DNA of 64,000 nt from an uncultured Planctomycetales bacterium (GCA_964374105.1 CAYJXI010000002.1:57730-121729), one strand, 5' to 3'. Shown: positions 6,292 to 24,123, numbered from the stretch's first letter. Translations and numbers: made by a program. The notes: a model not told the origin generated them from the sequence alone.

Positions 6292-6362
6292 ACACTTTGT
6301 TTCAATGAATTTAAGCAAAAAATTATATTAATTCTCGAAGGGAAAGTGGGTGAATTGAAATT

Positions 6363-6524
6363 ATGGTCGAAGTCAGAATTACAGATAAGAACGGTTTTGA
6401 AAAAGCCATGCGGATTTTTAAAAAACAGTGTCAGAAAGAAGGGTTCCTTGTCGAATTAAAAGAGAGACGATACTATACCAAACCCTCAGAAAAGAAGCGC
6501 CGTAAGAAAACTACCTCCTTTTAG
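6363..6524 (+). CDS. rpsU: 30S ribosomal protein S21 (short form, 53 aa)
   Basis: The translation MVEVRITDKNGFEKAMRIFKKQCQKEGFLVELKERRYYTKPSEKKRRKKTTSF matches the S21 pattern (..FE.ALRRFKR.C.K.G.L.E.RRR.YEKPSE.RKR...). It is absent from the supplied ORF track because it is under 60 aa. Confidence 0.75.
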   Translation: MVEVRITDKNGFEKAMRIFKKQCQKEGFLVELKERRYYTKPSEKKRRKKTTSF

Positions 6525-6603
6525 TCATTTCAACAGGGTCCTTTAAACTTTATTTTAAGACAGCGATCATTATTTATTCGCTGTGGAGCGTTAAAGACCT
6601 CCT

Positions 6604-7170
6604 ATGGCAAAAACGCTTAAGCAAGCCCTGCCTGCCCGGCAGGCAGGCCTGCCTGCCGGCAGGCAGGTTGCGATTTTAGTGGAAGATTTATATCAGGTTT
6701 TGGAGGTGTGGTATCCCCTTTTACGACTTAAGGAAGAAGGCATTGCAGTCAAGACGATCGGGACCGGAACAAAAGAAACCTATAGCAGCAAAGAAGGATA
6801 TCCGATCAAGGTGGATTCAGGCATTCAGGATGTGGATGTCAAAGATTTCGATGGTGTCATTATTCCCGGGGGATATGCCCCGGATATCCTGCGCCGTTAT
6901 GAAAGGGTCGTCAATTTTATTAAACGTCTTTATATTGATGGCCGGGTGGTAGCAGCGATTTGCCATGGGGGATGGTTGTTGGTTTCTGCTGGGATCGCCA
7001 AAGGACATAAGCTTACGTGTTTTTTTGCTATCAAGGACGACTTGATCGCTGCGGGTGGGAAATATATCGATCGCGAAGTCGTTGTTGATAAAAATTTAAT
7101 TACCTCTCGTAAACCCGAAGACTTACCTCGATTTGTTCAAGAAATCATTAAACTCATCAAAAAAGGTTAA
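6604..7170 (+). CDS. DJ-1/PfpI family protein (class I glutamine amidotransferase-like)
   Basis: VAILVED...GVIIPGGYAP...AAICHGGWLL contains the nucleophile-elbow Cys typical of DJ-1/PfpI. The first ~20 codons are encoded by two tandem palindromes, so the true start is uncertain. Confidence 0.7.
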   Translation: MAKTLKQALPARQAGLPAGRQVAILVEDLYQVLEVWYPLLRLKEEGIAVKTIGTGTKETYSSKEGYPIKVDSGIQDVDVKDFDGVIIPGGYAPDILRRYERVVNFIKRLYIDGRVVAAICHGGWLLVSAGIAKGHKLTCFFAIKDDLIAAGGKYIDREVVVDKNLITSRKPEDLPRFVQEIIKLIKKG

Positions 7171-7252
7171 TCTTTGTATCAAGGATACTTCCAACGATCC
7201 TGGAGATTTTTAGCAACGACCTTTCCTTTTTAAATCTTAAAGAATTAGAGCG

Positions 7253-8809
7253 ATGATTAAAGTTAAACGAGCCCTCATCAGTGTTTCCGATAAAAATGGT
7301 CTTTTAGATTTTGCGAAAGGGCTTAATCAATTGGGAATTGAAATCATTTCCACCGGAGGGACAGCTAAAGTCCTTAAGGCGAGTGATATTCCGGTCAAAG
7401 AGGTTTCGGATTATACGGGTTTCCCGGAGATCTTGGATGGGCGGATCAAAACGCTTCATCCCGCCATCCATGGCGGGTTGTTGGCCTTGCGCGAAAAAGA
7501 AGAACATATCAGCCAGCTGAAAAAGTTTAATATGGGATTGATCGATATGGTGGTGGTCAATCTTTATCCCTTCCCCCGTTTTATTCAGAAAAAAAATGTA
7601 ACCTTAGAGGAGGCCCTGGAAAATATTGATATTGGAGGGCCCGCCGTGGTTCGTTCTGCTGCCAAAAATTTTAAAAGTGTCGCCGTAATTTGCAATCCCC
7701 TCCGTTATAAAGAAATCCTCAAAGAATTGGATTTGAATCAAGGCCTTTTATCCGATACGGTTTTGATGAATCTAGCGGTCGAGGCCTTTCAACATACGGC
7801 GGACTATGACCGAATCATCTATGATTTTCTTAAAAATAGGGATAAGGATCACGGACTCACTCGGATGCCCTCCGAGTTAAATTTACGATTTCATAAATTG
7901 CAAGATCTTCGTTATGGTGAAAATCCCCACCAAACGGCCGCGTTTTATCAAGATGAAGGACAGGCAAAAGGGTTGGCGAAATTAAAACAACTGCATGGGA
8001 AAGAGATGTCATTCAATAATTTATTGGATCTCAATTCTGCCGTTGAAATCCTTAAGGATTTTGCTTTGCCGACAGCCGTCATCATTAAACACAACAATCC
8101 GACCGGAGTTGCTTGTGCCTCTAGCTTAGGGAAGGCATTTCAAGAGGCTTATCAATGTGATTCCCTTTCTGCATTTGGCGGAATCATTGGTTTAAATAAA
8201 AAGGTTGATTTCAAAACGGCCCAGGCCATCCAAAAAAGTGGTTTCATGGAATGCGTTATTGCCCCGGCTTATGATAAAAACGCCTTTTTCCTTCTTTCCC
8301 AAAAGAAAAATCTAAGAATGATCCAGCTGGATACAAACGATTGGAATCGACAAGAATTTGATTTTAAAAAGATCCTCGGCGGGTTATTATTTCAGGATGA
8401 CGATAACAAAAATATTGATTCTAAGGAATGGCAAATCGCTACCCAAAGGAAGCCCACCCAATCCCAAAGGGAATCAATGTTATTCGGCTGGAAGATCATC
8501 AAACACATCCGATCCAATGCCGTGATTTTGGTCAAGGGGACAAGGACAATTGGCATTGGATGCGGCCAGACCTCTCGAATTGAAAGTATTGTCTTAGCTA
8601 TCAAAAAAGCAGGTCAACAGGCTAGGGATTCGATTTTGATTTCTGAAGCCTTTTTTCCTAAAACCGATAATGTCAAAGTTGCCGCCAGAGCCGGCATTCG
8701 GGCGATCATTCAATCAGGCGGATCCATCGCTGATCAAGATGTGATCAAAGAAGCCAATAGGGCTAAGATGGTCATGGTATTGACCGGAGTTCGGCATTTT
8801 AAACATTAA
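7253..8809 (+). CDS. purH: Bifunctional AICAR transformylase / IMP cyclohydrolase PurH
   Basis: 518 aa. The N-terminal MGS-like IMPCH domain (RALISVSDKNGL...ISTGGTAK...DGRIKTLHP) and the C-terminal AICARFT domain are recognisable. Confidence 0.9.
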   Translation: MIKVKRALISVSDKNGLLDFAKGLNQLGIEIISTGGTAKVLKASDIPVKEVSDYTGFPEILDGRIKTLHPAIHGGLLALREKEEHISQLKKFNMGLIDMVVVNLYPFPRFIQKKNVTLEEALENIDIGGPAVVRSAAKNFKSVAVICNPLRYKEILKELDLNQGLLSDTVLMNLAVEAFQHTADYDRIIYDFLKNRDKDHGLTRMPSELNLRFHKLQDLRYGENPHQTAAFYQDEGQAKGLAKLKQLHGKEMSFNNLLDLNSAVEILKDFALPTAVIIKHNNPTGVACASSLGKAFQEAYQCDSLSAFGGIIGLNKKVDFKTAQAIQKSGFMECVIAPAYDKNAFFLLSQKKNLRMIQLDTNDWNRQEFDFKKILGGLLFQDDDNKNIDSKEWQIATQRKPTQSQRESMLFGWKIIKHIRSNAVILVKGTRTIGIGCGQTSRIESIVLAIKKAGQQARDSILISEAFFPKTDNVKVAARAGIRAIIQSGGSIADQDVIKEANRAKMVMVLTGVRHFKH

Positions 8810-9031: not shown

Positions 9032-10615
9032 ATGACACCTCAAGAAGCCAAAGAATATCTTGATTCGTTCATTAATTATGAGGTTCATCTTGGCTTAGGA
9101 GATCCGTCCCAGTTTAAGTTGAGCCGAGTGGAATATCTTTTGGAACTCTTAGGAGGACCTCATAAAAAGTTAAAGTTTATTCATATCGCGGGGACAAAGG
9201 GAAAGGGATCCACCTGTGCCTTTGCGGCCAATATATTAAAATATTCCGGCTACCGGGTTGGACTTTACACCTCCCCGCATTTTTGTGATCTCAACGAGCG
9301 AATAAGAATCCTTTCGTTGACCCATTCGACCCCGCCATGGCGGGGTTCAGGGGCAACCCTGAGTCCTTCGACAAGCTCATCCCGCCCGTTGGCGGGACGA
9401 GCGAAGTCGAGGGGCCAAGCCCCAACATACCTGGGGGGGATAGTCGAACACCTTCAACTTCGCTCAGTGCTCAACCCTGCCCGCCCCGCAAAGCGTAAGC
9501 GGGCCGGGGAGTATAATCGAAGGGCCGAAGGGTTGACCGACCCTTTAAAGAAGCACGACTTTATTTTTGAGGATTGTATTTCGGATCAAGAATTGTGTTC
9601 TTTGATTGAAAAAACCCAACCTTATTTAGAAAAGGCCAGATTGACGACAAAGTATGGACGATTGAGTTATTTTGAGGTCTTGACCGTTTTAGCCTTGTAT
9701 TATTTTTTTAAACAAAATGTCGATGTCGTTGTCTTGGAAACCGGTTTGGGAGGTCGACTCGATGCCACCAATGTCGTTGATTCTTTAGTTTGCGGAATAA
9801 CACCCATCAGCCTTGAACATACCCAACAACTCGGTAACACCCTGGATAAGATTGCTCAAGAGAAAGCAGGGATCCTAAAAGATCCAAATCAGCTGGCCGT
9901 TATCGCACTGCAGCCTTTGGAAGTGTATGAGGTGATTAAAAAAAGATGTGAGGATTTAGGGATTAGGTTTTACACAGTCGGAAAGGATATTCTTTTTCAT
10001 TCTCTTACTCAAGAAGAGTCGCAACAACGGTTTGAAATTAAGGCAGGCAAATCTCTCTATCGATTATCAACTTCCTTGGTAGGAAGACACCAGGTTGTTA
10101 ATGCGGCCACTGCGGTGGGTTTAATTGAGGCCGGTAAAGATTTCGGATTCCAGATAAACGAGGAAAATATTTCTGATGGCATTGCGCAATGCTTTTGGCC
10201 GGGACGTTTTGAGATCATTCAAAAATACCCTTGGGTCATCCTAGATTGTGCGCATAATCCTAGTTCCTGTTTAAAGTTGAAAGAAACAGTTTTAGAATTA
10301 TTTCCTCAGAAGAAAATCCTTTTGATTTTAGGGGTTTCGCAGGATAAGGATATTTTGGGGATTTGTCAAAATCTTCAAAGTATAGCCGCGAGGGTTATTA
10401 CTACCAAAGCCAATCATCCGCGGGCCTTTGATTTCACCCAAAAGAACAGCAAAGATTTATTCCCGGGATGTCAGACGACTATGACCGAAAGTGTTAAGGA
10501 GGCGGTATCGTTAGCTTTTAAAAAGGTGGATCCAGAAGATGTCATCTTAATCACCGGATCGATTTTTGCTGTGGGAGAAGCCAGAGCCTTATTAATTCCC
10601 TCACTCGTCATTTAA
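9032..10615 (+). CDS. folC: Folylpolyglutamate synthase / dihydrofolate synthase FolC, carrying a ~70-aa in-frame insertion
   Basis: FIHIAGTKGKGST (P-loop) and the Mur-ligase family motifs are present. The 527-aa length exceeds the typical ~420-440 aa. The excess is a GC-rich palindromic repeat element at 9320-9545. Confidence 0.8.
   Translation: MTPQEAKEYLDSFINYEVHLGLGDPSQFKLSRVEYLLELLGGPHKKLKFIHIAGTKGKGSTCAFAANILKYSGYRVGLYTSPHFCDLNERIRILSLTHSTPPWRGSGATLSPSTSSSRPLAGRAKSRGQAPTYLGGIVEHLQLRSVLNPARPAKRKRAGEYNRRAEGLTDPLKKHDFIFEDCISDQELCSLIEKTQPYLEKARLTTKYGRLSYFEVLTVLALYYFFKQNVDVVVLETGLGGRLDATNVVDSLVCGITPISLEHTQQLGNTLDKIAQEKAGILKDPNQLAVIALQPLEVYEVIKKRCEDLGIRFYTVGKDILFHSLTQEESQQRFEIKAGKSLYRLSTSLVGRHQVVNAATAVGLIEAGKDFGFQINEENISDGIAQCFWPGRFEIIQKYPWVILDCAHNPSSCLKLKETVLELFPQKKILLILGVSQDKDILGICQNLQSIAARVITTKANHPRAFDFTQKNSKDLFPGCQTTMTESVKEAVSLAFKKVDPEDVILITGSIFAVGEARALLIPSLVI
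9320..9545. repeat. GC-rich compound palindromic element (REP/MITE-like) inserted in-frame in folC
   Basis: It contains accccgccatggcggggt and tcccgcccgttggcgggacga, the same sub-palindromes seen in other copies at 28.8 kb, 46.9 kb and 51.5 kb. Local GC is far above the flanking folC sequence. Confidence 0.6.
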
Positions 10616-12190: not shown

Positions 12191-13015
12191 TTAAGGATTG
12201 GCATCGGGATAGACATCAGATTGGTCGGTCTCGGAAGATGAGTCAAGATCTTCAAATTCTGTATCCTCCTCATCTTTGGAATCTGGGGGAGCCGATTTTA
12301 TTTTCTCCTGATAAACCTTTTCTGCAATCAGAGAGATTTTTTTCATCAACTCCTCATCGCGAAGAATAGCCAGAAATTTAGGATGGAAAATTAATTCTGA
12401 GTAGTTTTCCTCTTCTATCAGTTCTTGGACCTCTTCATCTTCAGCGAGTTCCTGAATTTTTTCATCAGATATAAAGTTTTGATACTCGGGCGTTTTGGCT
12501 ATTTTTTTTAATTGATCGGGATTCTTTAAAATTAAAAGAGAATCAAAAATATTTTTAGCCAACGGAGTTTGCTTGATCACGGATTCCGTAAACCAACCCC
12601 AGGTTAAAGATTGTTCGATATTTTTTTGCAGGCGCTCTAAGTCCCATAATTGCGGGGGTAGAAGGCTGATGAAAAAAATAACAATCATTGTCAGCCCACC
12701 TTTCCAGAGGAGACTTAAAAGACCACCCAAAAGGCGGCTGGCCCAAAACACGTAATGCCGAAAATTTTTATCGACTGTTCTGCGGCTTAAAAAGAATAGC
12801 AGGGTCAAAAGGATCGAAAGAACAATGGTCCCTCCAGACGTGACAAAAATAGCAGTTATAAGATTATTTGTCACATCATAATATAAAATTCCTACGATTA
12901 AAAAGACGAAAAAAGAAAAAGGCCCAATCAGAGCATATAAAAGGCCATTCCCCCAACCAATCAAAAAACACACTGCCCAAAAGACTAAAAGGAAATAGTC
13001 TAGGGACGTATACAA
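12191..13015 (-). CDS. CvpA-like polytopic membrane protein with an acidic C-terminal extension
   Basis: There are four predicted N-terminal TM helices with a CvpA-like pattern. The C-terminus is glutamate/aspartate-rich. Confidence 0.35.
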   Translation of the reverse strand: MYTSLDYFLLVFWAVCFLIGWGNGLLYALIGPFSFFVFLIVGILYYDVTNNLITAIFVTSGGTIVLSILLTLLFFLSRRTVDKNFRHYVFWASRLLGGLLSLLWKGGLTMIVIFFISLLPPQLWDLERLQKNIEQSLTWGWFTESVIKQTPLAKNIFDSLLILKNPDQLKKIAKTPEYQNFISDEKIQELAEDEEVQELIEEENYSELIFHPKFLAILRDEELMKKISLIAEKVYQEKIKSAPPDSKDEEDTEFEDLDSSSETDQSDVYPDANP

Positions 13016-13106: not shown

Positions 13107-14825
13107 TTAAGGCCTTTTTGTATCAAACCATGCTTGGTGTAATTTTTTCGCATCGAGGATATAAACATAGGTATTTCTTTTATTCTGGTTAAAGATTTGA
13201 TTAAGGATAAGATCCCGGTACGTACAAACCTCTTCTTCCTGTGTCCAGATTTTACTGGAAGCCAAGGTTGGAAAATAAGCAACGGTAAACTTTTCTAGAT
13301 TTTGGGATAAATAAAGTTCGGTCAAAAAAGGATCACGCATAAAGTCATCTTCGGCACAGTCCAACCAGATAGATCGACCGGTGATCGGGGGAATGAGGAT
13401 GTAACCTTCTGGGACCTGTAAGACGGTCCTCATACCCTCAAATTGAACCTCGTGTTTTCTTTTAGGATTGTTGAGGACAGAAACAGTAAAAGGGTTGTTG
13501 GGGTGATGGATGTAAACCCAAAGCTTCTGAACATTATTTTTAGCAAGCCAGGTGTCAATTTTAGCCGTTGCCATCCGCGTTGGGAAAACATCGAAGAGAA
13601 AAATTCTTAAATTGAAGATGAGATGAGATAAGACTAAAAGGACAATAGTTACCCTCAAGATGTTTTTAAATCTTCTGCTAGGATTAGTAAAAAATCTATG
13701 CTTAATTTCCTGAAAGATAAAACAAACCAAAAAGATGATCCCCATGAACCACGAATAATAATTGCGGCCAAATTGAGACACTTGGGTGATTTCCACTGCC
13801 AGCGGAGTTGAGAGGCTGATCAGGATGAGAAAAAAGAGCGAACGTTGTTTTAGAGAAAGTTTGAATAAGTATAAGATGCTTAATAAATATACGGAAAACA
13901 ATAAAGGCATGATGAGAAAAAAATATTTAATAATCCAAATCCAACCGGCCCCACGAAAGGAAATAGGTTCGGGGAGATTATAGGCATAAGGATAAGGTAA
14001 GTATTTTACAAGATAATCATGGTAAGCCTCGAAATGATTGACATGTTGGCTGGTGAATAGAAAATCAATAAAATTTATCACGCTTTTGAGCGGATCGGGG
14101 AAGGTAAAAAGCAAGATAATGCCTAAACATCCGATAAGAAATAACAAGGCTCTTGTCATGAATGTTTTTATATGTGTTTTACTCAACGAAATTTTAAAAG
14201 GATCGAGAAAATAAACAAAAAGAAAGTAAGGGAGAAAGAGAGTCGCGGTGGGAGAAGAGAAAAGCATAAACCCAAAACAAATGCCGGCTACCAGCGAAGG
14301 AATTGATTTGTCTTGAGATTTAAGCAAGAAAAAAACGGTAAATAAGAAGAACATCATCACCCAAGGTTGATGGGCTCCCTGAAGGACATACTGGTATGAC
14401 CAAAACGATGTGGCAAAAATAAAAAAGGCGATCAGGCCAATATGGTGATCAAAAAGTTTTTTGATGATGAGGTAGATGAGAATCGAAGAGACCTGGACAG
14501 CTAGAATCAAAAGGAGAATGTTGGGATATAAGGTCTCGTTGTCTTTAAGGATTTTTTGCATAATGGCAATACCCAGGATCATGGATTCTTTGCCGTGCAT
14601 ACTAATCCGGCCCAATGTGCCCGGGGCAGGGACATTATGCATTTCTGAAAAGTAAGGCAGTTCGAAAAGTTTAGCAGCTGTCGGAATATAAGCAAAGTAG
14701 GAGTCGGTTGGCCAAAAGTTGATGTAAACGGTCGATAGGGCAAGACCTAAGGAAATGAAGGTCGTAAGCATGATAACCAAAACTAAATAGATGGACTTAA
14801 TGTTTTTTGTGATGGGAAGAGCCAT
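13107..14825 (-). CDS. Polytopic membrane protein, GT-C/PMT/ArnT-like candidate glycosyltransferase (paralog A)
   Basis: 572 aa with at least 10 TM helices, followed by a soluble ~150-aa C-terminal domain. It is a paralog of the adjacent gene. Conserved blocks include YINFWP.DSY..YIPTA and ILIPPITG. Confidence 0.4.
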   Translation of the reverse strand: MALPITKNIKSIYLVLVIMLTTFISLGLALSTVYINFWPTDSYFAYIPTAAKLFELPYFSEMHNVPAPGTLGRISMHGKESMILGIAIMQKILKDNETLYPNILLLILAVQVSSILIYLIIKKLFDHHIGLIAFFIFATSFWSYQYVLQGAHQPWVMMFFLFTVFFLLKSQDKSIPSLVAGICFGFMLFSSPTATLFLPYFLFVYFLDPFKISLSKTHIKTFMTRALLFLIGCLGIILLFTFPDPLKSVINFIDFLFTSQHVNHFEAYHDYLVKYLPYPYAYNLPEPISFRGAGWIWIIKYFFLIMPLLFSVYLLSILYLFKLSLKQRSLFFLILISLSTPLAVEITQVSQFGRNYYSWFMGIIFLVCFIFQEIKHRFFTNPSRRFKNILRVTIVLLVLSHLIFNLRIFLFDVFPTRMATAKIDTWLAKNNVQKLWVYIHHPNNPFTVSVLNNPKRKHEVQFEGMRTVLQVPEGYILIPPITGRSIWLDCAEDDFMRDPFLTELYLSQNLEKFTVAYFPTLASSKIWTQEEEVCTYRDLILNQIFNQNKRNTYVYILDAKKLHQAWFDTKRP

Positions 14826-14852
14826 GGTTAATCGTTCTGATCTAATAAGATT

Positions 14853-16586
14853 TTACCGGATGGGTAATATTTTAGGAAATTGAGCAAACCATTCTTTTTG
14901 GAGTTTACTAGCATCCAGGATGTAGACATATCCCTTTTTTCTGTCTTTTTCATCAATGCCCTTGATAATTAAGTCGAGATAAGTACAGATCTCTTCCTCT
15001 TGAACCCATATTTTACTTGTGGCCATCGTTTTAAAGGAAGCCGCAACATACTTTTTAAAATCTGAGGAATGATATAATTCGGTTAAATAGGGATCTAAAG
15101 TAAAATCCGTGTAACGGCATTCTTTAAAAATCGTTTTCCCAGTGATAGGAGGAATTAAAATATAACCCTCTTGGGCTTGTCGGATATTATCCATGCCATA
15201 AAATTTTATTTCCTCTTTTTGTTTGGGATTATTGAGAAACTGGACGAAATTGAGATTAAGGGGGTGGTTAAAATAAACATAAATTCTTTTGATATTTCGT
15301 TCCCTGAGCCAGTGATGAATTCGGGTGGTGGCTAATCGGGTAGGAAAAACATCGGTTGAAAAAATATAAAGGTTAAAGATAAGATGCAATAAGAAGAGGC
15401 CGATTAGCGAACCTAGAAATTTCAATTTGACTTTTTTGTTGGTCAAGTTTTTCTCAAAATGGTATGCGGCCAGGCAAATAAGAAAGATGAGCCCTACGAT
15501 CCAGGAGAAATAATTTCTCCCGAATTGGGCTACCCCAACCCACTCGGCCAGTAAAGGGGTGGAAAGGCTAATCAAACACAGATACAGCAGTTGGATTTTC
15601 TGCAACGAAGTTTTTATCAAATACAGTAAACTCACAATATACCAAGGAAACATAATAGGCATGATCAAGAAAAAATATTTGAATATCCATACAAATCCCT
15701 CGCCCCGCAGGCTCTCAGGGAGGGGAAAATAACGGGAGAGATAACTTTGATAAATAACAAAATTATTCCCTGACTGACTGGCACGGATGAATAGAGAATA
15801 ATCTTTAATGTTTTTGATACAATGCGGGAAGGTAAAAAGTAAAAAAATACCTAAGACCCCTAACCCAAAGATTAAACATTGATGGTAGGGGAAGGAGTGA
15901 ATTTTTGTAGCCGAAGAATTTTCGTTCATAATCTTCCATAAGTAGAAACCAAGAAAGTAAGGAAAGTAAAGGGGAGCCGTTGGTGAGGAGAATAACATAA
16001 ATCCAAAGAAGATGCCTGACAGAAGATACGAAAAATTTGATTCTTTAAAGCAGAACAAAAAGAAAACCGTAAAAAGAAAATTCAAAAGCACCAAAGGTTG
16101 GTGGGCTCCTTGCAAACAGTACATATATGGCCCAAAGCAAGTCATAAATAAAAGACTCGCCAAAATCCCTATCTCTCTACCGAAGAATTTAGAAAAGATT
16201 GTATAAAATAAGATGGACGATATGCCGATGGAAATAATCAAAAGAAACACATTGGGATATAAACTCTGAAAATCATTCAGTATTCGTTGCATGACGGCAA
16301 TTCCTAAAATCAGGGCTTCCTTGCCATGCATGGTAATCTTGATTAAGCCATCGATGGGTAGATCATGCATTTCGGAAAGAAAAGGTTTTTCAAAGAGACG
16401 TCTTGCGGTTGGAATATAAGGTGTATAGGAATCTGAGGGCCAAAAGTTAATGTAGTAGGTTGACAAGGATAAGAGAAATATGATTGTTAAGGAGAAGACA
16501 AGGATAAACAAAAAATAGAATCTTTGTCTTTGGATGAAGAATAAATCACGCAAAGATTGAGAGAATTTCCTTAGAGAATTGTTCAT
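14853..16586 (-). CDS. Polytopic membrane protein, GT-C/PMT/ArnT-like candidate glycosyltransferase (paralog B)
   Basis: 577 aa with the same architecture and conserved blocks as 13107-14825. Confidence 0.4.
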   Translation of the reverse strand: MNNSLRKFSQSLRDLFFIQRQRFYFLFILVFSLTIIFLLSLSTYYINFWPSDSYTPYIPTARRLFEKPFLSEMHDLPIDGLIKITMHGKEALILGIAVMQRILNDFQSLYPNVFLLIISIGISSILFYTIFSKFFGREIGILASLLFMTCFGPYMYCLQGAHQPLVLLNFLFTVFFLFCFKESNFSYLLSGIFFGFMLFSSPTAPLYFPYFLGFYLWKIMNENSSATKIHSFPYHQCLIFGLGVLGIFLLFTFPHCIKNIKDYSLFIRASQSGNNFVIYQSYLSRYFPLPESLRGEGFVWIFKYFFLIMPIMFPWYIVSLLYLIKTSLQKIQLLYLCLISLSTPLLAEWVGVAQFGRNYFSWIVGLIFLICLAAYHFEKNLTNKKVKLKFLGSLIGLFLLHLIFNLYIFSTDVFPTRLATTRIHHWLRERNIKRIYVYFNHPLNLNFVQFLNNPKQKEEIKFYGMDNIRQAQEGYILIPPITGKTIFKECRYTDFTLDPYLTELYHSSDFKKYVAASFKTMATSKIWVQEEEICTYLDLIIKGIDEKDRKKGYVYILDASKLQKEWFAQFPKILPIR

Positions 16587-16714: not shown

Positions 16715-17026
16715 TTATTTGGAACGATGCACAGCCGAAGAAGAGCTTTGCGGGGCCTGCGATTCTTCAAGACTGGATTTGGATTGAGGAGAGGTCAAAA
16801 TGACATAACAGATATAAGGGATGAAGAAGATCCCAGCAAGGAAGACGACAAAGACGGGAGCAAGAAGGATATATTTGACAGGTGTGGGGAGTTTTAACTT
16901 CCCTTTCTTGGCCTTTTTGGCTTGGAGGGTTTCATATTCCGCCAGGCTCATTTGCTGAAACCCTCGTTCTTTGTATTTTTTTGATAGGTCTTCTTTATTA
17001 TCAGTCGTCATACTTAAATTTATCAA
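16715..17026 (-). CDS. Small single-pass membrane protein, hypothetical
   Basis: 103 aa with a Lys-rich N-terminus and one TM helix. Codon usage fits the local genome. Confidence 0.3.
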   Translation of the reverse strand: MINLSMTTDNKEDLSKKYKERGFQQMSLAEYETLQAKKAKKGKLKLPTPVKYILLAPVFVVFLAGIFFIPYICYVILTSPQSKSSLEESQAPQSSSSAVHRSK

Positions 17027-17205
17027 GTTTTCTTTTTGCCAGAAAGAAGTATAACAGGTAAAATCGATGAAATCAATGGGTGAAGAAATTTTTTAAATGA
17101 TCGTTTTCCCTTTTAATGATTGATGAAGAGAATTTTTTTGGAAAACCTATTGATAATTTCGCGAGTCGTAATAAAATGAAATTAGAGTTAAAAACATTAG
17201 AAGCT

Positions 17206-17332
17206 GTTTCATAACCTTCCTTTGTCATTCCCGAATGCCTTAATCGGAAATCCAAAGGAGAATTTTCCTCGGGCTGGATTCCTGCTTTCGCAGGAATGAC
17301 ATCGGAGACAGGTGATTTAGGGGTTATGAAAC
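17206..17332. mobile_element. MITE-like element: an 11-bp terminal inverted repeat flanking a REP palindrome
   Basis: The TIRs are gtttcataacc and ggttatgaaac. The inner palindrome reads gtcattcccgaatgccttaatcgg...ctgctttcgcaggaatgac. The minus-strand ORF 17073..17357 runs through it and is probably spurious. Confidence 0.5.
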
Positions 17333-17360
17333 CAGTTCTAATAAAATAGGATTTCAATTT

Positions 17361-17699
17361 ATGATCTATAGACCTGAACGCAGAAGAGATAAACGGGCTT
17401 TATGTCTGGTGCCGATTGAGTCTAAGCTGGGGACCTTGTTTGAGGGGATTAAGACTGTCGATATTAGTCTAGGAGGAATGGGATTTGTTTCCAAGAAGAA
17501 ACTTCCTCTTCATCAGAAAATGGCCATTGAAATAGAATTGATCCCTCAAGAAAGACCGATCCTTGTATTAGGCAAGGTGAGGTGGTTGACTCCTTTTTCT
17601 CAAGCGCGGTTATATCGCATTGGTTTGCAATTTGAAGGCGTTTTACAATATCCTTCAAGGTTACGGTTGAATAAATATATGAAATCAAGAGAAAAATAA
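17361..17699 (+). CDS. PilZ domain protein (c-di-GMP receptor-like)
   Basis: RRRDKR...DISLGGMGF matches the PilZ RxxxR ... DxSxxG motifs. Confidence 0.6.
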   Translation: MIYRPERRRDKRALCLVPIESKLGTLFEGIKTVDISLGGMGFVSKKKLPLHQKMAIEIELIPQERPILVLGKVRWLTPFSQARLYRIGLQFEGVLQYPSRLRLNKYMKSREK

Positions 17700-17759: not shown

Positions 17760-18095
17760 TTGCCGGTGAAAAATAATCGTATTTTTGAGCGATTCCCAGC
17801 AAGATTTCCAGCGAAATTTAGGAATTCTTTTAATGATTTTGGTACCAATGTCTTTTTAAGGAATGCCTCTGCCTCCGGGGTTAAAATTACAACCCATGAG
17901 AAGTTATTTCAAAATGATAGCGTCTCCTTATTGGTTAAATTACCGGATGGCCACGATCCCTTGGTTTTGAATTGTCAGGTTATTTGGTCTAAAAATAGAG
18001 ATCCCAATCTATGGGATGTGGGATTAAAACTCTATAAAATCAACTTTATGCAGATACAAAGATTATTTAAATTGGTAGAAGACAGCAGTCTGTGA
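17760..18095 (+). CDS. PilZ domain protein, second tandem copy
   Basis: NNRIFERFP...RNASASGVKI is PilZ-like. It lies directly downstream of the first PilZ gene. Confidence 0.5.
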   Translation: MPVKNNRIFERFPARFPAKFRNSFNDFGTNVFLRNASASGVKITTHEKLFQNDSVSLLVKLPDGHDPLVLNCQVIWSKNRDPNLWDVGLKLYKINFMQIQRLFKLVEDSSL

Positions 18096-18271: not shown

Positions 18272-20689
18272 ATGAAGTACGGGCATTTCTCCAAAGACGG
18301 ACTTGAATACATCATCACTGATCCTAATACTCCTCGCCCTTGGATCAATTATCTGACTAACGAACAATATTGCTGTATTATCTCGCAATGCGCTGGTGGT
18401 TATAGTTTTTATAAAGATTGTCGAACGAATCGGATCACGCGGTGGCTTCCGGAAAATTGGCATTTTGACCGACCAGGGAAATATCTTTTTATCCGCGATA
18501 AAAATAAAGTTTGGTCTTTAACTTACCAACCTCTTCGCGTCAAGCCGAAGTTTTTTCAATGCCGTCATGGACTAGGTTACACGGTTATTGAATCTCTAAA
18601 TCAGGGAGTAAAATCCAAGGTCACTTATTTTGTCCCCCCCAAGGATGATTGTGAAGTTTGGCTTGTGGAATTGACTAATACAACCAAAAAAGAGAGGGCC
18701 CTTGAGATTTATCCTTATGTGGAATTCCTTATTGGCGATTATCAGGAGGAACTCCGTTATCGCAATATCATGAATCTTTACAACCGTGTTTGGTTTGACA
18801 AATCCCGTCAGGCTGTCTTTGCCAAAAAGACCGCCATGTGGCAAGGGATGAATATCCAGCCTTTTGACACCTTGGTTTTTTTTGCTTCTTCCTTAGTGGT
18901 GAAAGGATGTTGCACTCATAAAGATACCTTTTTGGGAAGATATAATACTGAGGAAAAACCGGAAAGTATATTTCAGGGGAAATTCAAAAATTTCCTTTTG
19001 TGTTCGGGAGAAGAGGGAATCGGATCCTTTAAACACATTGTTCGTCTTAACCCCAGCGATACAAAAGAATTTACGGTGATCCTAGGGCAAACCACGGGAA
19101 TACCGGAAATTGCCAAGATCTTAACAAAATATAGGGATGTGAAGAATGCCAAAAAGGAGCTTACAAATACAAAAGAGCTTTGGCGTAAAAGGATTTTGGA
19201 TAATATCATGATTGATACCCCGGATAAAGATTTTAATTCGTTATACAATATTTGGGTAAAGTATCAAGTTTATATGTGTAATCTTTGGTCACGTTCTCCC
19301 AGTTATTATCATGAAGGTTCCGGAGGCAGGGGTTATCGAGATTCAGCCCAAGATTTAGAAGCGATTGTCTCCATCAATCCAAAATTGACTCGTCAAAAAA
19401 TTTTAAAAATTGCCTCTTTGATCCGACGGGATGGCACCTCGGCTCCAGGCTGGTCGGATACCTCCGGCCCATATAAACACCGTCCCAATAAAGATCATCC
19501 GATTTGGCTTACCGCTACTGTCAGTGCTTATATCAAAGAGACCGGAGACAAGGACGTTTTGTTTGAGTACGCCCCTTATTTAAAAGACCATTGGCGAGGA
19601 GGCTGGGAGATGGATCCAAATTATAAAGGAGGAAGCCAAACGGATGGGGAAGGGACGCTTTTGGAGCATTTAGAAAAAAATTTACAATTTTGTTTTAATG
19701 ATGTGGGGGAAAAAGGATTTCCTCGTATTGGCCATGCCGATTGGAATGATGCCATTGATGCGGCAGGGATTCGCCATAAAGGAGAAAGTGTTTGGTTAGC
19801 CCAGGCCTTGGTTCGGTCATTGAAAATATTGGCAGAAATTTTTGATTTGATTGGGAATGAAAAAAAGAAAACGGAATACCTGCAAATGGCTAAGACCATG
19901 GATGAACGCATCAACTCCATTGCCTGGGATGGGGAATGGTATACCCGAGGTTATGATGACGATGGGCTGGCTTATGGGAGCAAACAGGATAAAGAAGGAA
20001 AGATTTTCTTAAATACTCAGGCTTGGGCCATTTTAGCGGGGGTGGCTAGGGGAGAGAGATTAAAAACTGTCATCCAATCGGTTGATCAGTATCTGAATGG
20101 TCCTCACGGTTTGGCTTTATTTTATCCCGCCTATTCTTCTTGGGTTAAACGGTTAGGCCGCATCAGTATGTTCTCGGAAGGAACAAAAGAAAACGCTGCT
20201 GTTTTCTGCCATGCCGCTACATTTATGACAGTAGCTTTGGCGATGAGTGGCTATGGCGATAAGGCTCATGAGGCTATGCGCAAAATTATGCCCAATGCCC
20301 AAAAAGATATGGAAATTTATAAAACCGAACCCTATGTCTTTGCCGAATATCTTGTAGGGCCTCAGAATCCTTATCGATATGGAGAGGGGGCCTTTACTTG
20401 GATCACCGGTTCCTCGGGGTGGCAATTTATGTTGGCCACCGAATGGATTTTAGGTGCTAGACGAGATTACCAAGGATTAAGGATCGATCCTTGCATCCCT
20501 AAGAAGTGGAAAAAATGTTTTATCCGACGTCCGTTTCGCGGGGATATTTATGATATTGAGATTACGAATCCTTTTGGTAAGGAACACGGCGTTAAGCAAG
20601 TCTTCATCGATGGGAAAGAAATCGATGGGGATCTCATTGTTCCTTTTCAAGATGGGAGGATTCATCGAGTCAAAGTCATCATGGGTTGA
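18272..20689 (+). CDS. GH94 family glycoside phosphorylase (cellobiose / cellodextrin / chitobiose phosphorylase-like)
   Basis: 805 aa. The N-terminus MKYGHFSKDGLEYIITDPNTPRPWINYLTN matches the conserved start of cellobiose phosphorylases. Confidence 0.8.
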   Translation: MKYGHFSKDGLEYIITDPNTPRPWINYLTNEQYCCIISQCAGGYSFYKDCRTNRITRWLPENWHFDRPGKYLFIRDKNKVWSLTYQPLRVKPKFFQCRHGLGYTVIESLNQGVKSKVTYFVPPKDDCEVWLVELTNTTKKERALEIYPYVEFLIGDYQEELRYRNIMNLYNRVWFDKSRQAVFAKKTAMWQGMNIQPFDTLVFFASSLVVKGCCTHKDTFLGRYNTEEKPESIFQGKFKNFLLCSGEEGIGSFKHIVRLNPSDTKEFTVILGQTTGIPEIAKILTKYRDVKNAKKELTNTKELWRKRILDNIMIDTPDKDFNSLYNIWVKYQVYMCNLWSRSPSYYHEGSGGRGYRDSAQDLEAIVSINPKLTRQKILKIASLIRRDGTSAPGWSDTSGPYKHRPNKDHPIWLTATVSAYIKETGDKDVLFEYAPYLKDHWRGGWEMDPNYKGGSQTDGEGTLLEHLEKNLQFCFNDVGEKGFPRIGHADWNDAIDAAGIRHKGESVWLAQALVRSLKILAEIFDLIGNEKKKTEYLQMAKTMDERINSIAWDGEWYTRGYDDDGLAYGSKQDKEGKIFLNTQAWAILAGVARGERLKTVIQSVDQYLNGPHGLALFYPAYSSWVKRLGRISMFSEGTKENAAVFCHAATFMTVALAMSGYGDKAHEAMRKIMPNAQKDMEIYKTEPYVFAEYLVGPQNPYRYGEGAFTWITGSSGWQFMLATEWILGARRDYQGLRIDPCIPKKWKKCFIRRPFRGDIYDIEITNPFGKEHGVKQVFIDGKEIDGDLIVPFQDGRIHRVKVIMG

Positions 20690-20729
20690 TCCCCATGTTT
20701 ATTATATCCTTTGTTGGCTTAAGTCGGTT

Positions 20730-20758
20730 TTGACAAATTTCTGTTGGCGTGTTAAAAT
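20730..20758 (+). promoter_or_regulatory. Strong sigma70-type promoter for the sugar ABC operon
   Basis: TTGACA (20730-20735), a 17-nt spacer, then TAAAAT (20753-20758). Confidence 0.55.
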
Positions 20759-20835
20759 GCACCCTTTGAATTAGCCACATTTCTTTTTGCAATTGGAGGC
20801 AAATGGTTGGCGAACATTGATCATTCCACCCATTT

Positions 20836-20869
20836 CCAAACACCCGGTGTTTGGAGACAGGTGTTTGGG
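20836..20869 (+). promoter_or_regulatory. Perfect 19-bp palindrome plus a half-site repeat between the promoter and the ABC binding-protein gene; a candidate operator
   Basis: ccaaacacccggtgtttgg is a perfect palindrome. It is followed by agacaggtgtttggg, which repeats the right half-site. Confidence 0.4.
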
Positions 20870-20896
20870 ATGACCAAAATGTAGCCTTTAAATTCA

Positions 20897-22204
20897 ATGA
20901 ACATAAATAAAAAAATTTTTCTTACCATCCAATTCTTCCTGTTATCCCTTCTTCTTTTCTTTCCATTAGGATGTTTCAACAGAGTAAAAAATCCGAATAC
21001 CCTTGTCGTATGGCATTGGATGACGGATCGTCATGAGGTCTTTGAAACATTAGCAGAAAAATACGAAAAAGAAACTGGTAATAAAATTATTTTTGAACTC
21101 TATGCGCCTTCCGATGTTTACTCACAGAAAGTGGTTGCTGCTGCTCAGGCAAAAATTTTACCCGATATCTTTGGGATCTTGGATAAAAAGTCAATTGTCG
21201 CCTCTTTCATTGAAAGCGGGTTTGTAGCGGATTTGTCCGAAGAGTTCAAAAAAGATGATGCGGCTTGGGAGAAAACTTTCTTCCCTAAGGCTTTGGCGGT
21301 CAATCGCTTTGAGGAAGGCAACTCCTATCATATCAAACCCGGCATTTATGGAGTTCCCATTGATGTAACAAATATTCAAATGCTTTATAACAAAAAGTTA
21401 TTGAAGAAAGCAGGTATTGACCAACCTCCAAAAACATTTGCGGAATTACTTGAGGCGAGCGAGGCTCTCAAACGCGTTGGGATAGCAGGAATTGTTTCAG
21501 GCTGGGGGGAACTTTGGATGGCAGAGTGTTTCGCCTCAAATTATGCCTTTAACATCATGGGAGAAGAAAAAGTGATGGCCACATACCGAGGGGAAATCCC
21601 CTACACTGATCCGGATTGGATCAAAGTTTTTGATATATTCGCCCAGCTGAGAGACAAAGGAGCTTTGGCAGAAGGGATTGTGACAAAAGCAAATAAATAT
21701 GCGGAACAAGATTTTGCCTTAGAGCGAGCTGCGTTTGCCTTTAATGGTTCCTGGGGTGTGAATGAATATCATAAAAGGAATCCGGAATTAGAGTATGGGG
21801 CCATGCTCCCACCTGCGATAAATGACAAATTACCGATGAAAATATGGGGGGGAGCTGGGTCATCATTTAAAGTTAATAATCATTCAAAGAATAAGGACAA
21901 GGCTATTGCTTTTTTAAAATGGTTAACGGCCAAAGAACAACAGGTCTTTCTAGCTCAGCAGACAAAAAATTTGCCCTCGAATAGAGATGCTTTAGCTTCT
22001 ATCCCTAAGATACTTTCAGAATTTGCCATGGTCATGGATCATACAACACATCCTACGATCTGGCCCATTAATGAAGATGCCCTTGTGACCGAGGCTTTTG
22101 ATAAAGGGCTGCAAGCCATTATGATAGGGGAAATGACCCCTCAAGAAGTTGCCCAAGAGGTGCAAGGAGTTAAGAAACGTCAGTTGGGAAAGACCAAAAG
22201 GTGA
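20897..22204 (+). CDS. ABC transporter extracellular solute-binding protein (carbohydrate, family 1)
   Basis: 435 aa with an N-terminal signal/lipobox-like sequence (LLLFFPLGCF) and a sugar-SBP fold. Two MalF/MalG-type permeases follow. Confidence 0.8.
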   Translation: MNINKKIFLTIQFFLLSLLLFFPLGCFNRVKNPNTLVVWHWMTDRHEVFETLAEKYEKETGNKIIFELYAPSDVYSQKVVAAAQAKILPDIFGILDKKSIVASFIESGFVADLSEEFKKDDAAWEKTFFPKALAVNRFEEGNSYHIKPGIYGVPIDVTNIQMLYNKKLLKKAGIDQPPKTFAELLEASEALKRVGIAGIVSGWGELWMAECFASNYAFNIMGEEKVMATYRGEIPYTDPDWIKVFDIFAQLRDKGALAEGIVTKANKYAEQDFALERAAFAFNGSWGVNEYHKRNPELEYGAMLPPAINDKLPMKIWGGAGSSFKVNNHSKNKDKAIAFLKWLTAKEQQVFLAQQTKNLPSNRDALASIPKILSEFAMVMDHTTHPTIWPINEDALVTEAFDKGLQAIMIGEMTPQEVAQEVQGVKKRQLGKTKR

Positions 22205-22218
22205 TAAAAACGGTTAGT

Positions 22219-22251
22219 CAGTAGGGGCGACCCGGCGGGTCGCCCCTACTT
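22219..22251 (+). terminator. Intra-operon hairpin (partial terminator) between the SBP gene and the permease genes
   Basis: agtaggggcgacccggcgggtcgcccctact forms a perfect 13-bp stem with a short T tract. Confidence 0.5.
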
Positions 22252-22262
22252 TAGGGATTATC

Positions 22263-23189
22263 ATGGAAGGTTATAAAACTCAAAGGTCTTTGTCGGCAAA
22301 GTTAAAAGATAAAACCGAAAATTTTTTTTTCATTGCCCCCGCTGTCGTTATCTTCTCAATTTTTTATGTTTATCCTTTCATCAATATCTTCCATTTATCT
22401 CTTTTTGAATGGAATGGAATCAGTCCAAGCCGAGAATTTGTCGGTTTAGATAATTTTAAAGAATTGATGTATGATAAGGTGTGGTGGTCATCCATGGGGC
22501 ATGCGGCCTATATCACCCTTATCGCGCTTACGTTTCAAAATGCCCTGGCCTTTGCCTTGGCACTTGCTTGTGACCGAGAAATCCGGCTTAAAAAATTTTA
22601 TCGAGTTGTTTTTTTTATTCCACCTGTTTTATCTGAGATCGTTATCGGGTTAATTTGGCAGTGGATCCTATATTCGGGAATTCACGATGGAGAATATATA
22701 GGATTATTAAATTATTTTCTCGATAAGGCAGGATTGCATCATTTGGCGCATAATTGGTTATCGGACCCTAAGACGGCTTTGACGTGTATTGCGGTTGTTC
22801 ACAGTTGGAAGGGATTCGGTTGGGGATTTATCATTTTATTGGCGGGATTGCAGACAATTGATCGACAATTGTATGAAGCCGCTCGCGTGGATGGAGCGGG
22901 AAGTTGGAATATATTCTTGAATGTGACTATCCCCTTGATGCTGCCGGTGATTGTCGTTGTTGTTATTTTAACAATTTTAGGATCGATGCAAGTGTTTGTT
23001 CTTATTCTCTCCATGGTAGGACAAGGTTTGGTTTACCATACTGAGGTGCCGGTGACAAGGATTCTGGCTTCCATGATGGGAACAAATCGTTTTGGTTATG
23101 CGTGTGCCCAGGGGGTAGTTTTTGGATTGATTTTGGTCGTTGTCTCTTTCACGCTCAAGCTTTTATCGAATAAAATGAAACAGGCCTAA
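22263..23189 (+). CDS. Sugar ABC transporter permease (MalF/UgpA-like)
   Basis: The EAA-loop region is EAARVDGAGSWNIFLNVTIPL. Six TM helices are predicted. Confidence 0.85.
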   Translation: MEGYKTQRSLSAKLKDKTENFFFIAPAVVIFSIFYVYPFINIFHLSLFEWNGISPSREFVGLDNFKELMYDKVWWSSMGHAAYITLIALTFQNALAFALALACDREIRLKKFYRVVFFIPPVLSEIVIGLIWQWILYSGIHDGEYIGLLNYFLDKAGLHHLAHNWLSDPKTALTCIAVVHSWKGFGWGFIILLAGLQTIDRQLYEAARVDGAGSWNIFLNVTIPLMLPVIVVVVILTILGSMQVFVLILSMVGQGLVYHTEVPVTRILASMMGTNRFGYACAQGVVFGLILVVVSFTLKLLSNKMKQA

Positions 23190-23280
23190 AAGCCTTCAGC
23201 CATCAGTTTTCAGTTATCAGAAAGAAGATAAAGCTTATGATTAACTGAGAGCTGATGACTGAAAGCTGAAAACTCAAATT

Positions 23281-24123
23281 ATGATCGAACGCTATAAAAT
23301 TATTCGTATCTTCAAATCGGTTGTCACCCATTTGTTATTGGGGAGTGTCACCTTGACGTGTTTATTGCCATTTTTTTGGATGGTAAGGTGTGCGTTGATG
23401 AGTGAAGATACGATTTTTACGGATAAATCTTTGATTCCTTCCCAATTGCATTTTGAAAATTTTTACTTGGCTTGGACCAAAGGAAACTTTGGAATTTATT
23501 TTTTGAATAGTGTGATTTATACGGCTACGGTCGTCATGGGTATTATTTTGATTTCCTCTTTAGCCGCCTTTGCTTTTTCCCGATTGAAATTCCCTGGGAG
23601 AAATTTATTCTATTTTGTGTTTGTGGCGGCGATGATGATCCCCTTGCCAGGAAGTTTTGTCCCTCTGTATGTGCTTATGAATAAATTAGGATTGGTGAAT
23701 AATCCGGTTGGATACATCATTTGTATGATCAATGTGGGATTGTCTTTGAGCATATTGCTTCTTAAAACATTTTTTGACAAAATGCCCTTGGATCTAGAAG
23801 ACGCCGCCAGAATTGACGGATGTTCCAAATTAGGGATCTGGTGGCATGTGGCCTTGCCCCTCGCTCGGCCGGCCATTGCGGTCATAGCTATCTTTAATTC
23901 CCTCAATGTTTGGAATGAGTACATCCTTGCTATGCTTTTATTGAATGATAAAAATTTAATGCCGCTCCAAAGGGGGTTGATGGTCTTTCAGGGACAACAT
24001 AGTGTTGATTATCATCTGTTGTTGGCGGGATTGACGATTACAGCCATTCCTATAATTATCATATATTTATTTATGCAAAAACATATTATTAAAGGGCTTT
24101 CCTCGGGTGCTATTGTAGGATAG
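23281..24123 (+). CDS. Sugar ABC transporter permease (MalG/UgpE-like)
   Basis: The EAA-loop region is EDAARIDGCSKLGIWWHVALPLARPA. Confidence 0.85.
   Translation: MIERYKIIRIFKSVVTHLLLGSVTLTCLLPFFWMVRCALMSEDTIFTDKSLIPSQLHFENFYLAWTKGNFGIYFLNSVIYTATVVMGIILISSLAAFAFSRLKFPGRNLFYFVFVAAMMIPLPGSFVPLYVLMNKLGLVNNPVGYIICMINVGLSLSILLLKTFFDKMPLDLEDAARIDGCSKLGIWWHVALPLARPAIAVIAIFNSLNVWNEYILAMLLLNDKNLMPLQRGLMVFQGQHSVDYHLLLAGLTITAIPIIIIYLFMQKHIIKGLSSGAIVG

Follow-up and report, generated by a model that had tools for sequence, protein, structure and literature searches.

A tandem pair of probable GT-C glycosyltransferases with their own predicted periplasmic domain and a PilZ neighborhood in a genome of the Candidatus Omnitrophota type

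Glycosyltransferases (GTs) of the GT-C type build or decorate key surface molecules such as lipopolysaccharide (LPS), arabinogalactan, and N- and O-glycoproteins, and the characterized enzymes all use a polyprenyl-phosphate-linked sugar donor. Protein O-mannosyltransferases (PMTs) possess 11 transmembrane (TM) helices with the N terminus inside and the C terminus outside, and ArnT carries an Asp...Lys/Glu motif. The first periplasmic loop of ArnT is formed by two juxtamembrane helices, and a third one leads into the flexible loop between TM7 and TM8 (PMC7801869). RgtA and RgtB both add galacturonic acid to the outer 3-deoxy-D-manno-oct-2-ulosonic acid residue of the Rhizobium LPS (PMC4402001), and the C-terminal domain of the founding member of GT136 is a carbohydrate-binding module for the acceptor (PMC11127046). 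These systems are compared here to a tandem pair of genes for polytopic membrane proteins, A and B, in a 64,000-nucleotide stretch of DNA deposited under the name of an uncultured Planctomycetales bacterium (GCA_964374105.1, CAYJXI010000002.1:57730-121729), which is designated “the window” in its full length. The products of both genes are most probably active inverting GT-C glycosyltransferases of the inner membrane.

A previous sequence-only reading of the window had recognized two adjacent minus-strand genes for proteins of the same architecture with about 45 to 50% identity. The open reading frames (ORFs) were recovered exactly and are separated by a gap of 27 nt, and a BLASTP comparison of A and B gave 279 identical residues of 559 (50%) and 68% positives (515 bits, E = 0), a likeness far beyond chance. 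All of the loop motifs quoted in that reading, YINFWP[ST]DSY, YIPTA, SEMH, HGKE, and ILGIA.MQ, and the C-terminal motifs ILIPPITG, DP[YF]LTELY, SKIW.QEEE.CTY, and YVYILDA were present in both proteins, and in an alignment of 57 family members most of them match columns that are invariant or nearly so. The single Pfam family matched by A and B was PMT_2 (PF13231) in residues 86 to 230, with 39.9 bits for A and 29.7 bits for B, both above the gathering threshold of 26.1. PMT_2 was also found at E ≤ 0.01 in 46 of 57 full-length relatives, in which no other family was matched consistently; a confident hit to a non-GT family, which would have spoken against a glycosyltransferase, did not occur, since no transporter or other non-GT family scored. 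An NCBIfam scan of A and B returned nothing meaningful. Pfam PMT (PF02366), MIR, and PMT_4TMC did not match either protein at E ≤ 1, Pfam Glyco_transf_22 and STT3 (GT66) did not match either, and the WWD of the WWDxG motif of STT3 was absent from both translations.

The AlphaFold2 model was of high confidence, with a predicted local distance difference test score (pLDDT) of 92.2 and a predicted template modeling score (pTM) of 0.93. It contains a polytopic helical region from residue 7 to 417, followed by an alpha/beta domain that begins at about residue 425 to 430 and ends at 572, and no inserted beta-trefoil domain. The N-terminal part consists of helix 7-31, the short helices 41-55, 59-64, and 71-75, and a 14-residue helix 80-93, the middle part of the helices 100-124, 127-149, 153-169, 175-188, 194-207, and 216-241. 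Helix 245-261 is amphipathic and is followed by a loop with partial disorder (273-294, pLDDT about 54), and the helices 295-324, 329-347, 359-379, and 384-417 precede the alpha/beta domain. This arrangement fits 11 TM helices plus juxtamembrane helices with the N terminus in and the C-terminal domain out, a count that depends on reading helix 80-93 as juxtamembrane. The 11-TM topology was preferred because of the density of Lys plus Arg, which was 0.21 to 0.24 in six predicted cytoplasmic segments versus 0.06 to 0.09 in the periplasmic loops of both paralogs, because a weak alignment to ArnT places helix 100-124 on ArnT TM2, and because of the published ArnT layout. Both the roughly 10 to 12 TM helices and the soluble C-terminal domain expected in the sequence-only reading thus reappear in the model.

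According to the model, A and B have a GT-C fold. The list of GT-C proteins used for comparison, in which the figure of each entry stands without a heading, comprises ALG12 (23.4), Pmt4 (21.8), ArnT (20.0), STT3B (19.8), Pmt2 (19.5), AglB (18.9), Pmt1 (17.4), AftD (17.4), ALG9 (17.4), glycosylphosphatidylinositol (GPI) mannosyltransferase 1 (17.0), AftA (16.1), ALG3 (15.6), PglB (14.9), AftB (14.7), PIG-U (13.3), ALG6 (12.6), DPY19 (12.2), GAB1 (11.7), PimE (10.3), and EmbA (8.3). The best root mean square deviation (rmsd) was that to the Pmt structures. The C-terminal domain had no significant match to any solved structure, including the respective domains of ArnT and of oligosaccharyltransferases.

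The 57 core sequences share 21 invariant columns, which are, in the numbering of A, P39, D41, Y46, K79, Q90, D95, P101, Y146, H152, G181, P243, W297, P307, E345, Q351, G353, N405, G474, D498, S524, and W527. All 21 residues are retained by A as well as by B, which is P0009 in the family search. Two further subgroups contributed 96 relatives of greater distance, which gave an extended set of 153 sequences. D41, which corresponds to D52 of B, was invariant in 57/57 core sequences and present in 152/153 sequences of the extended set. It opens helix 41-55, nine residues beyond TM1 (helix 7-31), a position that we take to be that of the essential acidic loop-1 residue in GT-C enzymes. An acidic residue conserved in periplasmic loop 1 had been named in the sequence-only reading as the mark of a GT-C enzyme, and the essentially invariant D41/D52, together with the PMT_2 scores of both proteins, supports its GT-C-like assignment. 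The residue following D41 is Ser, Ala, Thr, or Asn and not the Glu of the PMT Asp-Glu motif.

Across the 153 sequences, the position of K79 is always Lys or Arg and that of E80 is Glu or Asp in 150; Q90, D95, G181, S191, P243, W297, P307, E345, Q351, Y356, D498, and S524 are strongly conserved or invariant. Most of the conserved polar residues other than D41, among them K79, E80, Q90, D95, H152, E345, Q351, R354, and Y356, are situated in loops placed in the periplasm, a pattern consistent with an active site facing this compartment. Both Cys490 and Cys534 are present in 52 sequences and neither in 94, and 7 sequences have only one of the two. Such a co-variation is the pattern expected of a disulfide and would agree with a periplasmic location of the C-terminal domain. 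The positions of these elements and of the genes in their vicinity are listed in Table 1.

Table 1. Features of the GT-C locus and its neighborhood. Nucleotide positions are those of the window; “residues” refers to the protein. aa, amino acids; ABC, ATP-binding cassette; GH, glycoside hydrolase family; TPR, tetratricopeptide repeat; TIM, triosephosphate isomerase.
Feature	Position	Strand	Remarks
GT-C paralog A	13107..14825	minus	572 aa; downstream copy of the pair
GT-C paralog B	14853..16586	minus	577 aa; upstream copy; predicted catalytic Asp D52 in WPSDSY
D41 codon, paralog A	14703..14705	minus	candidate Asp for catalysis or acceptor activation; at the beginning of the first juxtamembrane helix
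First periplasmic loop of A (predicted)	residues 32-99		invariant D41, K79, Q90, D95
Long TM7-TM8 loop of A (predicted)	residues 242-294		
Conserved QFGRNY loop of A	residues 348-358		
C-terminal alpha/beta domain of A, predicted periplasmic	13110..13553	minus	residues 425-572; invariant G474, D498, S524, W527; QEEE motif; Cys490/Cys534
small103, small conserved membrane protein	16715..17026	minus	ATG at 17011 is the likelier start
CvpA-like membrane protein	12191..13015	minus	last gene of the unit; weak Pfam Colicin_V match, E 0.001, residues 5-143
PilZ protein 1, stand-alone	17361..17699	plus	112 aa; Pfam PilZ E 4.5e-12; divergent from the GT-C unit
PilZ protein 2, stand-alone	17760..18095	plus	111 aa; Pfam PilZ E 8.3e-10
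GH94 phosphorylase	18272-20689	plus	downstream of the PilZ genes
Sugar ABC transporter binding protein	20897-22204	plus	
308- and 280-aa ORFs	22263-23189, 23281-24123	plus	cluster with BPD_transp_1 permeases of related loci
TPR plus GH2-TIM-barrel protein	24163-26586	plus	807 aa

A word-indexed search yielded 61 relatives, and all of the named ones came from metagenome-assembled genomes (MAGs) of Candidatus Omnitrophota, with public labels that are mostly “hypothetical” and in some cases “glycosyltransferase family 39 protein” (NCBI). Bacteria of this phylum have not been cultured, are in many cases ultra-small, and may depend on a host. When 1.84 billion cluster representatives were searched exhaustively with the family profile, 457 proteins scored E ≤ 0.001, and the stricter limit of E ≤ 1e-30 was reached by 235. 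The family comprises about 457 clusters at 50% identity. Three size classes were visible: proteins of 550 to 580 aa resembling A and B, proteins of about 700 to 745 aa with a C-terminal extension, and proteins of about 600 to 680 aa in which the C-terminal half is most strongly shared. The named members of the second and third classes were mostly from Omnitrophota, and a few came from bins labeled Dehalococcoidia, Chloroflexota, or Margulisiibacteriota. The family profile stayed apart from the very large general PMT_2 population, and the lack of spill-over indicates a distinct, phylum-centered family. Two strict peptide patterns detected 23 loci in the GTDB species genomes, all of them in Omnitrophota MAGs, some of which are mislabeled “uncultured Planctomycetales.”

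The tandem of B followed by A exists in two other genomes (loci L001/L002 and L032), and most genomes harbor a single copy of either type at the same locus. In neighbor-joining (NJ) trees, the upstream copies of the three pairs formed one clade and the downstream copies another, with B clustering with the upstream copies of the other pairs and most single-copy loci. The members of the pair are 50% identical and relatives in other genomes 45 to 50%. Because the pair is not closer than cross-genome relatives, the duplication is old, with differential loss afterwards, and because all invariant residues were kept in both copies, A and B are probably both active enzymes.

In one large clade of the family, the GT-C genes belong to a unit that starts with a gene for a small, roughly 100-aa protein, continues with a single GT-C gene or two of them, and ends with a gene for an extended CvpA-like protein, and this unit is convergent with mnmE, folC, and purH. 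In the small protein, small103, an N-terminal part rich in Lys precedes a single TM helix, which contains the motif G(L/I)F(Y/F)IP(F/Y), and a C-terminal tail predicted to be periplasmic, which was rich in Ser, Thr, and Lys in 7/7 aligned homologues; the protein was not assigned to any Pfam or NCBIfam family. Homologues are located directly upstream of the GT-C gene at 8 related loci according to clustering, and L032 and L033 contain a gene for 103 to 104 aa. The CvpA-like protein is composed of a 4-TM Colicin_V domain and a helical C-terminal extension of about 100 to 130 aa, and its homologues in related loci match Colicin_V on record. Its gene is directly downstream of the GT-C gene or genes in 12 loci by clustering, plus L032 and L033. 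In Escherichia coli, too, folC and cvpA are neighbors, so the synteny may in part be an ancestral feature that has nothing to do with the GT-C genes, and the CvpA-like gene needs to be treated cautiously as a sign of a functional link. A scan for promoters and terminators between positions 12000 and 17800 gave counts no higher than in shuffled sequence, which leaves spacing and synteny as the basis of the operon structure.

A second clade (L004, L014 to L016, and L025) has the GT-C gene between Lnt and two paralogous secreted proteins with linkers rich in Pro, Ser, Thr, and Gln. At positions 7750-12358 of L004, and also in L014, L015, L016, and L025, the GT-C gene directly follows the gene for Lnt, the apolipoprotein N-acyltransferase. 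One of the secreted proteins, which is about 220 aa long and either fused to Lnt or encoded next to it, has a conserved domain at its C terminus (…YDFENGQ(D/N)KD…NRxRLG(L/M)P). A second copy of the secreted protein comes after the GT-C gene, followed by inositol monophosphatase, carA, and carB. This may be a context of lipoprotein or secreted-protein glycosylation. The distant relative P0061 (24% identity) resides in a nucleotide-sugar, O-antigen-like cluster, and the neighborhoods of more distant lineages (L013, L017 to L019, L021, L024, and L026) are variable and have no conserved context. In the single-copy relative L003, the region upstream of the GT-C unit (1230-8305) contains a dTDP-amino-deoxy-sugar pathway with a nucleoside triphosphate (NTP) transferase, dehydratases/epimerases, an FdtA-like isomerase, and a DegT aminotransferase, and in addition a GT2 protein of 266 aa and a 527-aa protein without a Pfam match. 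The products of these genes could be a pathway for a polyprenyl-phosphate sugar donor.

As inverting GT-C glycosyltransferases, A and B would use a polyprenyl-phosphate-linked sugar that is synthesized in the cytoplasm and then reaches the periplasmic leaflet of the inner membrane by flipping. By analogy to characterized enzymes, D41 may activate or position the acceptor nucleophile, K79 and R354 may hold the donor phosphate, the flexible TM7-TM8 loop may close over or gate the site, and the C-terminal periplasmic domain may recognize the acceptor. A and B could add two different sugars or linkages to one acceptor, as RgtA and RgtB do, or they could work as a heterodimer like Pmt1-Pmt2.

Evaluation of this assignment needs to consider several observations that weigh against it. 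The PMT_2 scores exceed the threshold only modestly. A phmmer search with the single sequence against all Protein Data Bank (PDB) chains gave no relevant similarity, an hmmsearch with the family profile against all PDB sequences no match at E ≤ 10, and hhalign of the family profile against E. coli ArnT no significant alignment (E 0.19, probability 0.3%), the weak stretch of the latter corresponding to the PMT_2 region. Helix 80-93 was taken as juxtamembrane on the basis of the charge bias and of this weak ArnT alignment, the roles of the residues were assigned by position and conservation alone, and the split into an A and a B clade is weakly supported, with NJ bootstrap values of 39 and 59 of 100. 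No GT2 polyprenyl-phosphate sugar synthase and no flippase of the GtrA or ArnEF type was found in the 64-kb window by Pfam scans, which included 30 further ORFs. Finally, the PilZ genes of the window are co-oriented with the GH94 and ABC sugar genes and may belong to those. Since a link by sequence to a solved or characterized GT-C protein is missing, a precise CAZy-type family such as GT83, GT39, or GT66 cannot be assigned, and the caution of the sequence-only reading in this respect was justified.

Concerning the acceptor, an outer-membrane glycolipid of the LPS core or lipid A type is ranked first, albeit tentatively, because of the kinship of PMT_2, ArnT, and Rgt proteins and the precedent of RgtA and RgtB. 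A and B may accordingly be of the ArnT/Rgt type and transfer sugars from undecaprenyl phosphate to lipid A or the LPS inner core, with one position for each member of the paralog pair; this explanation is the leading one but should not be rated higher than a tentative proposal. PMT_2 is the Pfam family of ArnT- and Rgt-like enzymes, and A and B resemble ArnT in the juxtamembrane helices of loop 1 and in an alpha/beta domain at the C terminus, which is predicted to be periplasmic. The window encodes LptE, MurJ, and a BamD-like protein, indicating that the organism has an outer membrane with LPS, and the housekeeping genes surrounding the unit would fit a constitutive envelope function. On the other hand, the comparison with E. 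coli ArnT was not significant, the conserved periplasmic motif QEEE is acidic, which is unexpected for binding of lipid A phosphates, and 11 TM helices were counted versus 13 in ArnT. Moreover, a donor pathway resembling arnBCADEF was found neither in the window nor in the related loci inspected, and genes for donor synthesis are not nearby.

A Ser/Thr-rich envelope protein, for instance, the small operon partner, is a slightly less probable acceptor and was considered because of the PMT-like topology, the best rmsd to the Pmt structures, and the tail of this partner. It would mean O-glycosylation of Ser/Thr-rich disordered stretches of envelope proteins in the manner of PMTs, possibly by an A-B heterodimer with the small protein as substrate or subunit, and this is rather unlikely, too. 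The 11-TM topology proposed for A and B matches that of PMTs, the single-TM protein encoded upstream carries a suitable tail in the predicted periplasmic location, and the second Omnitrophota clade has Lnt and the two secreted proteins with their linkers on either side of the GT-C gene. The paralog pair was retained in three genomes, but the single copy in most genomes indicates that a heterodimer is not obligatory. A and B were not recognized by the Pfam profiles of PMTs, and their acidic motif is Asp followed by Ser, Ala, Thr, or Asn instead of Asp-Glu.

Another periplasmic glycan as acceptor is improbable. A further explanation, also improbable, is a step of periplasmic glycan or exopolysaccharide formation under control of cyclic di-GMP (c-di-GMP), in which the GT-C protein builds or decorates a glucan and is switched by the neighboring PilZ proteins. 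The two PilZ genes mentioned in the sequence-only reading are real. As read from the translations, PilZ1 contains RRRDKR (RxxxR) and DISLGG (DxSxxG) and PilZ2 contains RIFER (RxxxR) and NASASG (D/NxSxxG), so that both possess the canonical motifs of a predicted c-di-GMP receptor. Orthologues of PilZ1 occur at the same position in L005, L006, L008, L028, L032, and L033, those of PilZ2 in these loci and in L001. A stand-alone PilZ gene with both motifs intact is adjacent to the GT-C unit in 12/12 assessable loci, either divergent and upstream (the window, L001, L005, L006, L008, L028, L032, and L033) or within the operon, where it separates the GT-C gene from the CvpA-like gene (L003, L011, L020, and L022); the gaps in L003 are 25 to 57 nt. 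That the association was kept in two arrangements is the strongest argument for a functional tie to the GT-C unit and suggests that c-di-GMP may modulate this unit via PilZ.

The other side of the PilZ genes is conserved as well. The set of GH94, sugar ABC transporter, and GH2-like genes (18272-26586) is kept beside the GT-C unit in several relatives, which would fit this explanation, but this set may instead be the actual PilZ target, as indicated by the common orientation in the window. To our knowledge, the polysaccharide synthases under c-di-GMP control are all GT2-type enzymes that face the cytoplasm, or partners of such enzymes, and not GT-C proteins. With a periplasmic catalytic site, a cytoplasmic PilZ protein could act only indirectly, genes for polysaccharide export are absent, and there is no PilZ gene near the GT-C gene in the Lnt-context clades. 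An Rfam scan of the whole window, for instance for a c-di-GMP riboswitch, gave no match at gathering scores. The c-di-GMP hint of the sequence-only reading was thus strengthened by the 12 loci, four of them with PilZ inside the operon, but not proven. The PilZ genes of the window point toward the GH94 and sugar ABC genes, and the alternative of an exopolysaccharide function, given in the sequence-only reading, received no specific support.

A broader and quite speculative possibility is that the small TM protein, the GT-C proteins, PilZ, and the CvpA-like protein form one module, in which c-di-GMP controls the periplasm-facing GT-C enzyme by way of a PilZ adaptor on the cytoplasmic face. In one version, a heterodimer of A and B resembling Pmt1-Pmt2 would possibly glycosylate the Ser/Thr-rich tail of the small operon protein. 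We know of no precedent for a link between c-di-GMP and a GT-C enzyme. If true, this would be the first GT-C enzyme regulated by a second messenger, and the output of c-di-GMP in Omnitrophota would be envelope glycosylation and not exopolysaccharide synthesis by GT2 enzymes.

A non-catalytic protein with a GT-C fold, such as a scaffold or lipid-binding subunit like PIG-U or GAB1, or a transporter is very unlikely, since the invariant Asp of loop 1 and the invariant polar residues assigned to the periplasm in about 150 diverse sequences fit an active site, and the transporter or any other non-GT protein was rejected, with Foldseek matches to transporters only at E > 0.4 and TM-scores of 0.12 to 0.13.

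Other parts of the window contained further elements. The folC gene convergent with the unit (9032-10615, plus strand) encodes a FolC protein of 527 aa compared to about 450 aa in relatives. The extra residues, about 75 (HSTPPWRGSGATLSPST...RPAKRKRAGEYNRRAEGLTDP), come from an in-frame GC-rich stretch at 9325-9545 with several short inverted repeats, which looks like a small repeat element or a sequence resembling a miniature inverted-repeat transposable element (MITE) that is tolerated within the gene; it had no Rfam match. Between the small-protein gene and PilZ1, at 17215-17330, there is a GC-rich palindromic element (…ATTCCTGCGAAAGCAGGAATCCAG…CATTCGGGAATGACAAAGGAAGG…), which creates a spurious 94-aa ORF (17073-17357, minus strand) and whose 24-nt core occurs only once in the window. 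Genes of a CRISPR-Cas system span 317-5029 on the plus strand, with Cas7 (317-1183), Cas4 (3333-4001), and Cas1 (3998-5029) interrupted by a BRO-N gene (1251-2078) and a gene of the RhuM family (2230-3336). Downstream of these genes, at 5518-5611, a 28-nt repeat, GTCGCGCCCCGTGCGGGCGCGTGGATTG, occurs just twice, with a spacing of 66 nt, and makes up a minimal one-spacer array. On the minus strand are a ThiG gene (37264-38079) and a gene for a radical S-adenosylmethionine (SAM) protein with a BATS domain (36167-37189, similar to ThiH or BioB); neither a thiamine pyrophosphate (TPP) riboswitch nor any other Rfam family was found at gathering score anywhere in the window. No tRNAs were found in the window.

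Several hundred clusters, a conserved housekeeping locus, and an own predicted periplasmic domain without a solved analogue indicate that the GT-C family is probably a sign of an envelope modification typical of the phylum. Its mostly “hypothetical” members can be annotated as GT-C glycosyltransferases with a predicted catalytic Asp, D41, and a putative acceptor-binding domain in the periplasm, while the label “family 39” is not established. The general idea of a glycosyltransferase was already known, since some public annotations say “family 39.”

In comparison to known systems, A and B share with ArnT and RgtA to RgtD (GT83, transferring sugars from undecaprenyl or dodecaprenyl phosphate to lipid A or the LPS core) the PMT_2 profile above threshold. 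The succession of elements in the model resembles that of ArnT: TM1, two juxtamembrane helices, and TM2, then TM7, a juxtamembrane helix, a disordered or flexible loop, and TM8, and finally a periplasmic alpha/beta domain at the C terminus. The order of an Asp, 30 to 40 residues, and a Lys/Glu pair ahead of the next TM helix is also similar. They differ from ArnT by the lack of significant sequence likeness, by a C-terminal domain that does not match that of ArnT, and by the number of TM helices, and from the ArnT/Rgt systems in general by other operon partners (the small TM protein, the CvpA-like protein, and PilZ) and by a locus without genes for donor synthesis or a flippase. With the PMTs (GT39; the Pmt1-Pmt2 heterodimer and Pmt4 homodimer of yeast and the actinobacterial Pmt), they have in common the predicted 11-TM topology, the acidic loop-1 residue, the occurrence as paralogous pairs, and the NCBI name of some relatives. 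The differences are the absence of a MIR domain, Asp-Ser instead of Asp-Glu, and a soluble domain that is C-terminal instead of inserted into a loop.

Three-component systems that combine a polyprenyl-phosphate sugar synthase, a flippase, and a GT-C protein (Gtr, CsbB/YfhO, and GT136) likewise have a periplasm-facing GT-C enzyme with a C-terminal domain able to bind the acceptor glycan (PMC11127046), and the distant relative P0061 in its O-antigen-like sugar cluster resembles them; here, synthase and flippase are unlinked, and the GT-C genes reside in a conserved housekeeping neighborhood rather than in a variable glycan island or a prophage. The mannosyltransferases ALG12, ALG9, and ALG3 (GT22/GT58), which use dolichyl-phosphate mannose (Dol-P-Man), are eukaryotic enzymes of the endoplasmic reticulum with 10% identity, and the family of A and B possesses the additional C-terminal domain. 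A and B are of a known kind at the level of the fold and Pfam clan and not demonstrably GT83, GT39, or GT66 at the family level. New is a phylum-centered family with its own predicted periplasmic domain, candidate catalytic residues, an old tandem pair, and a PilZ neighborhood.

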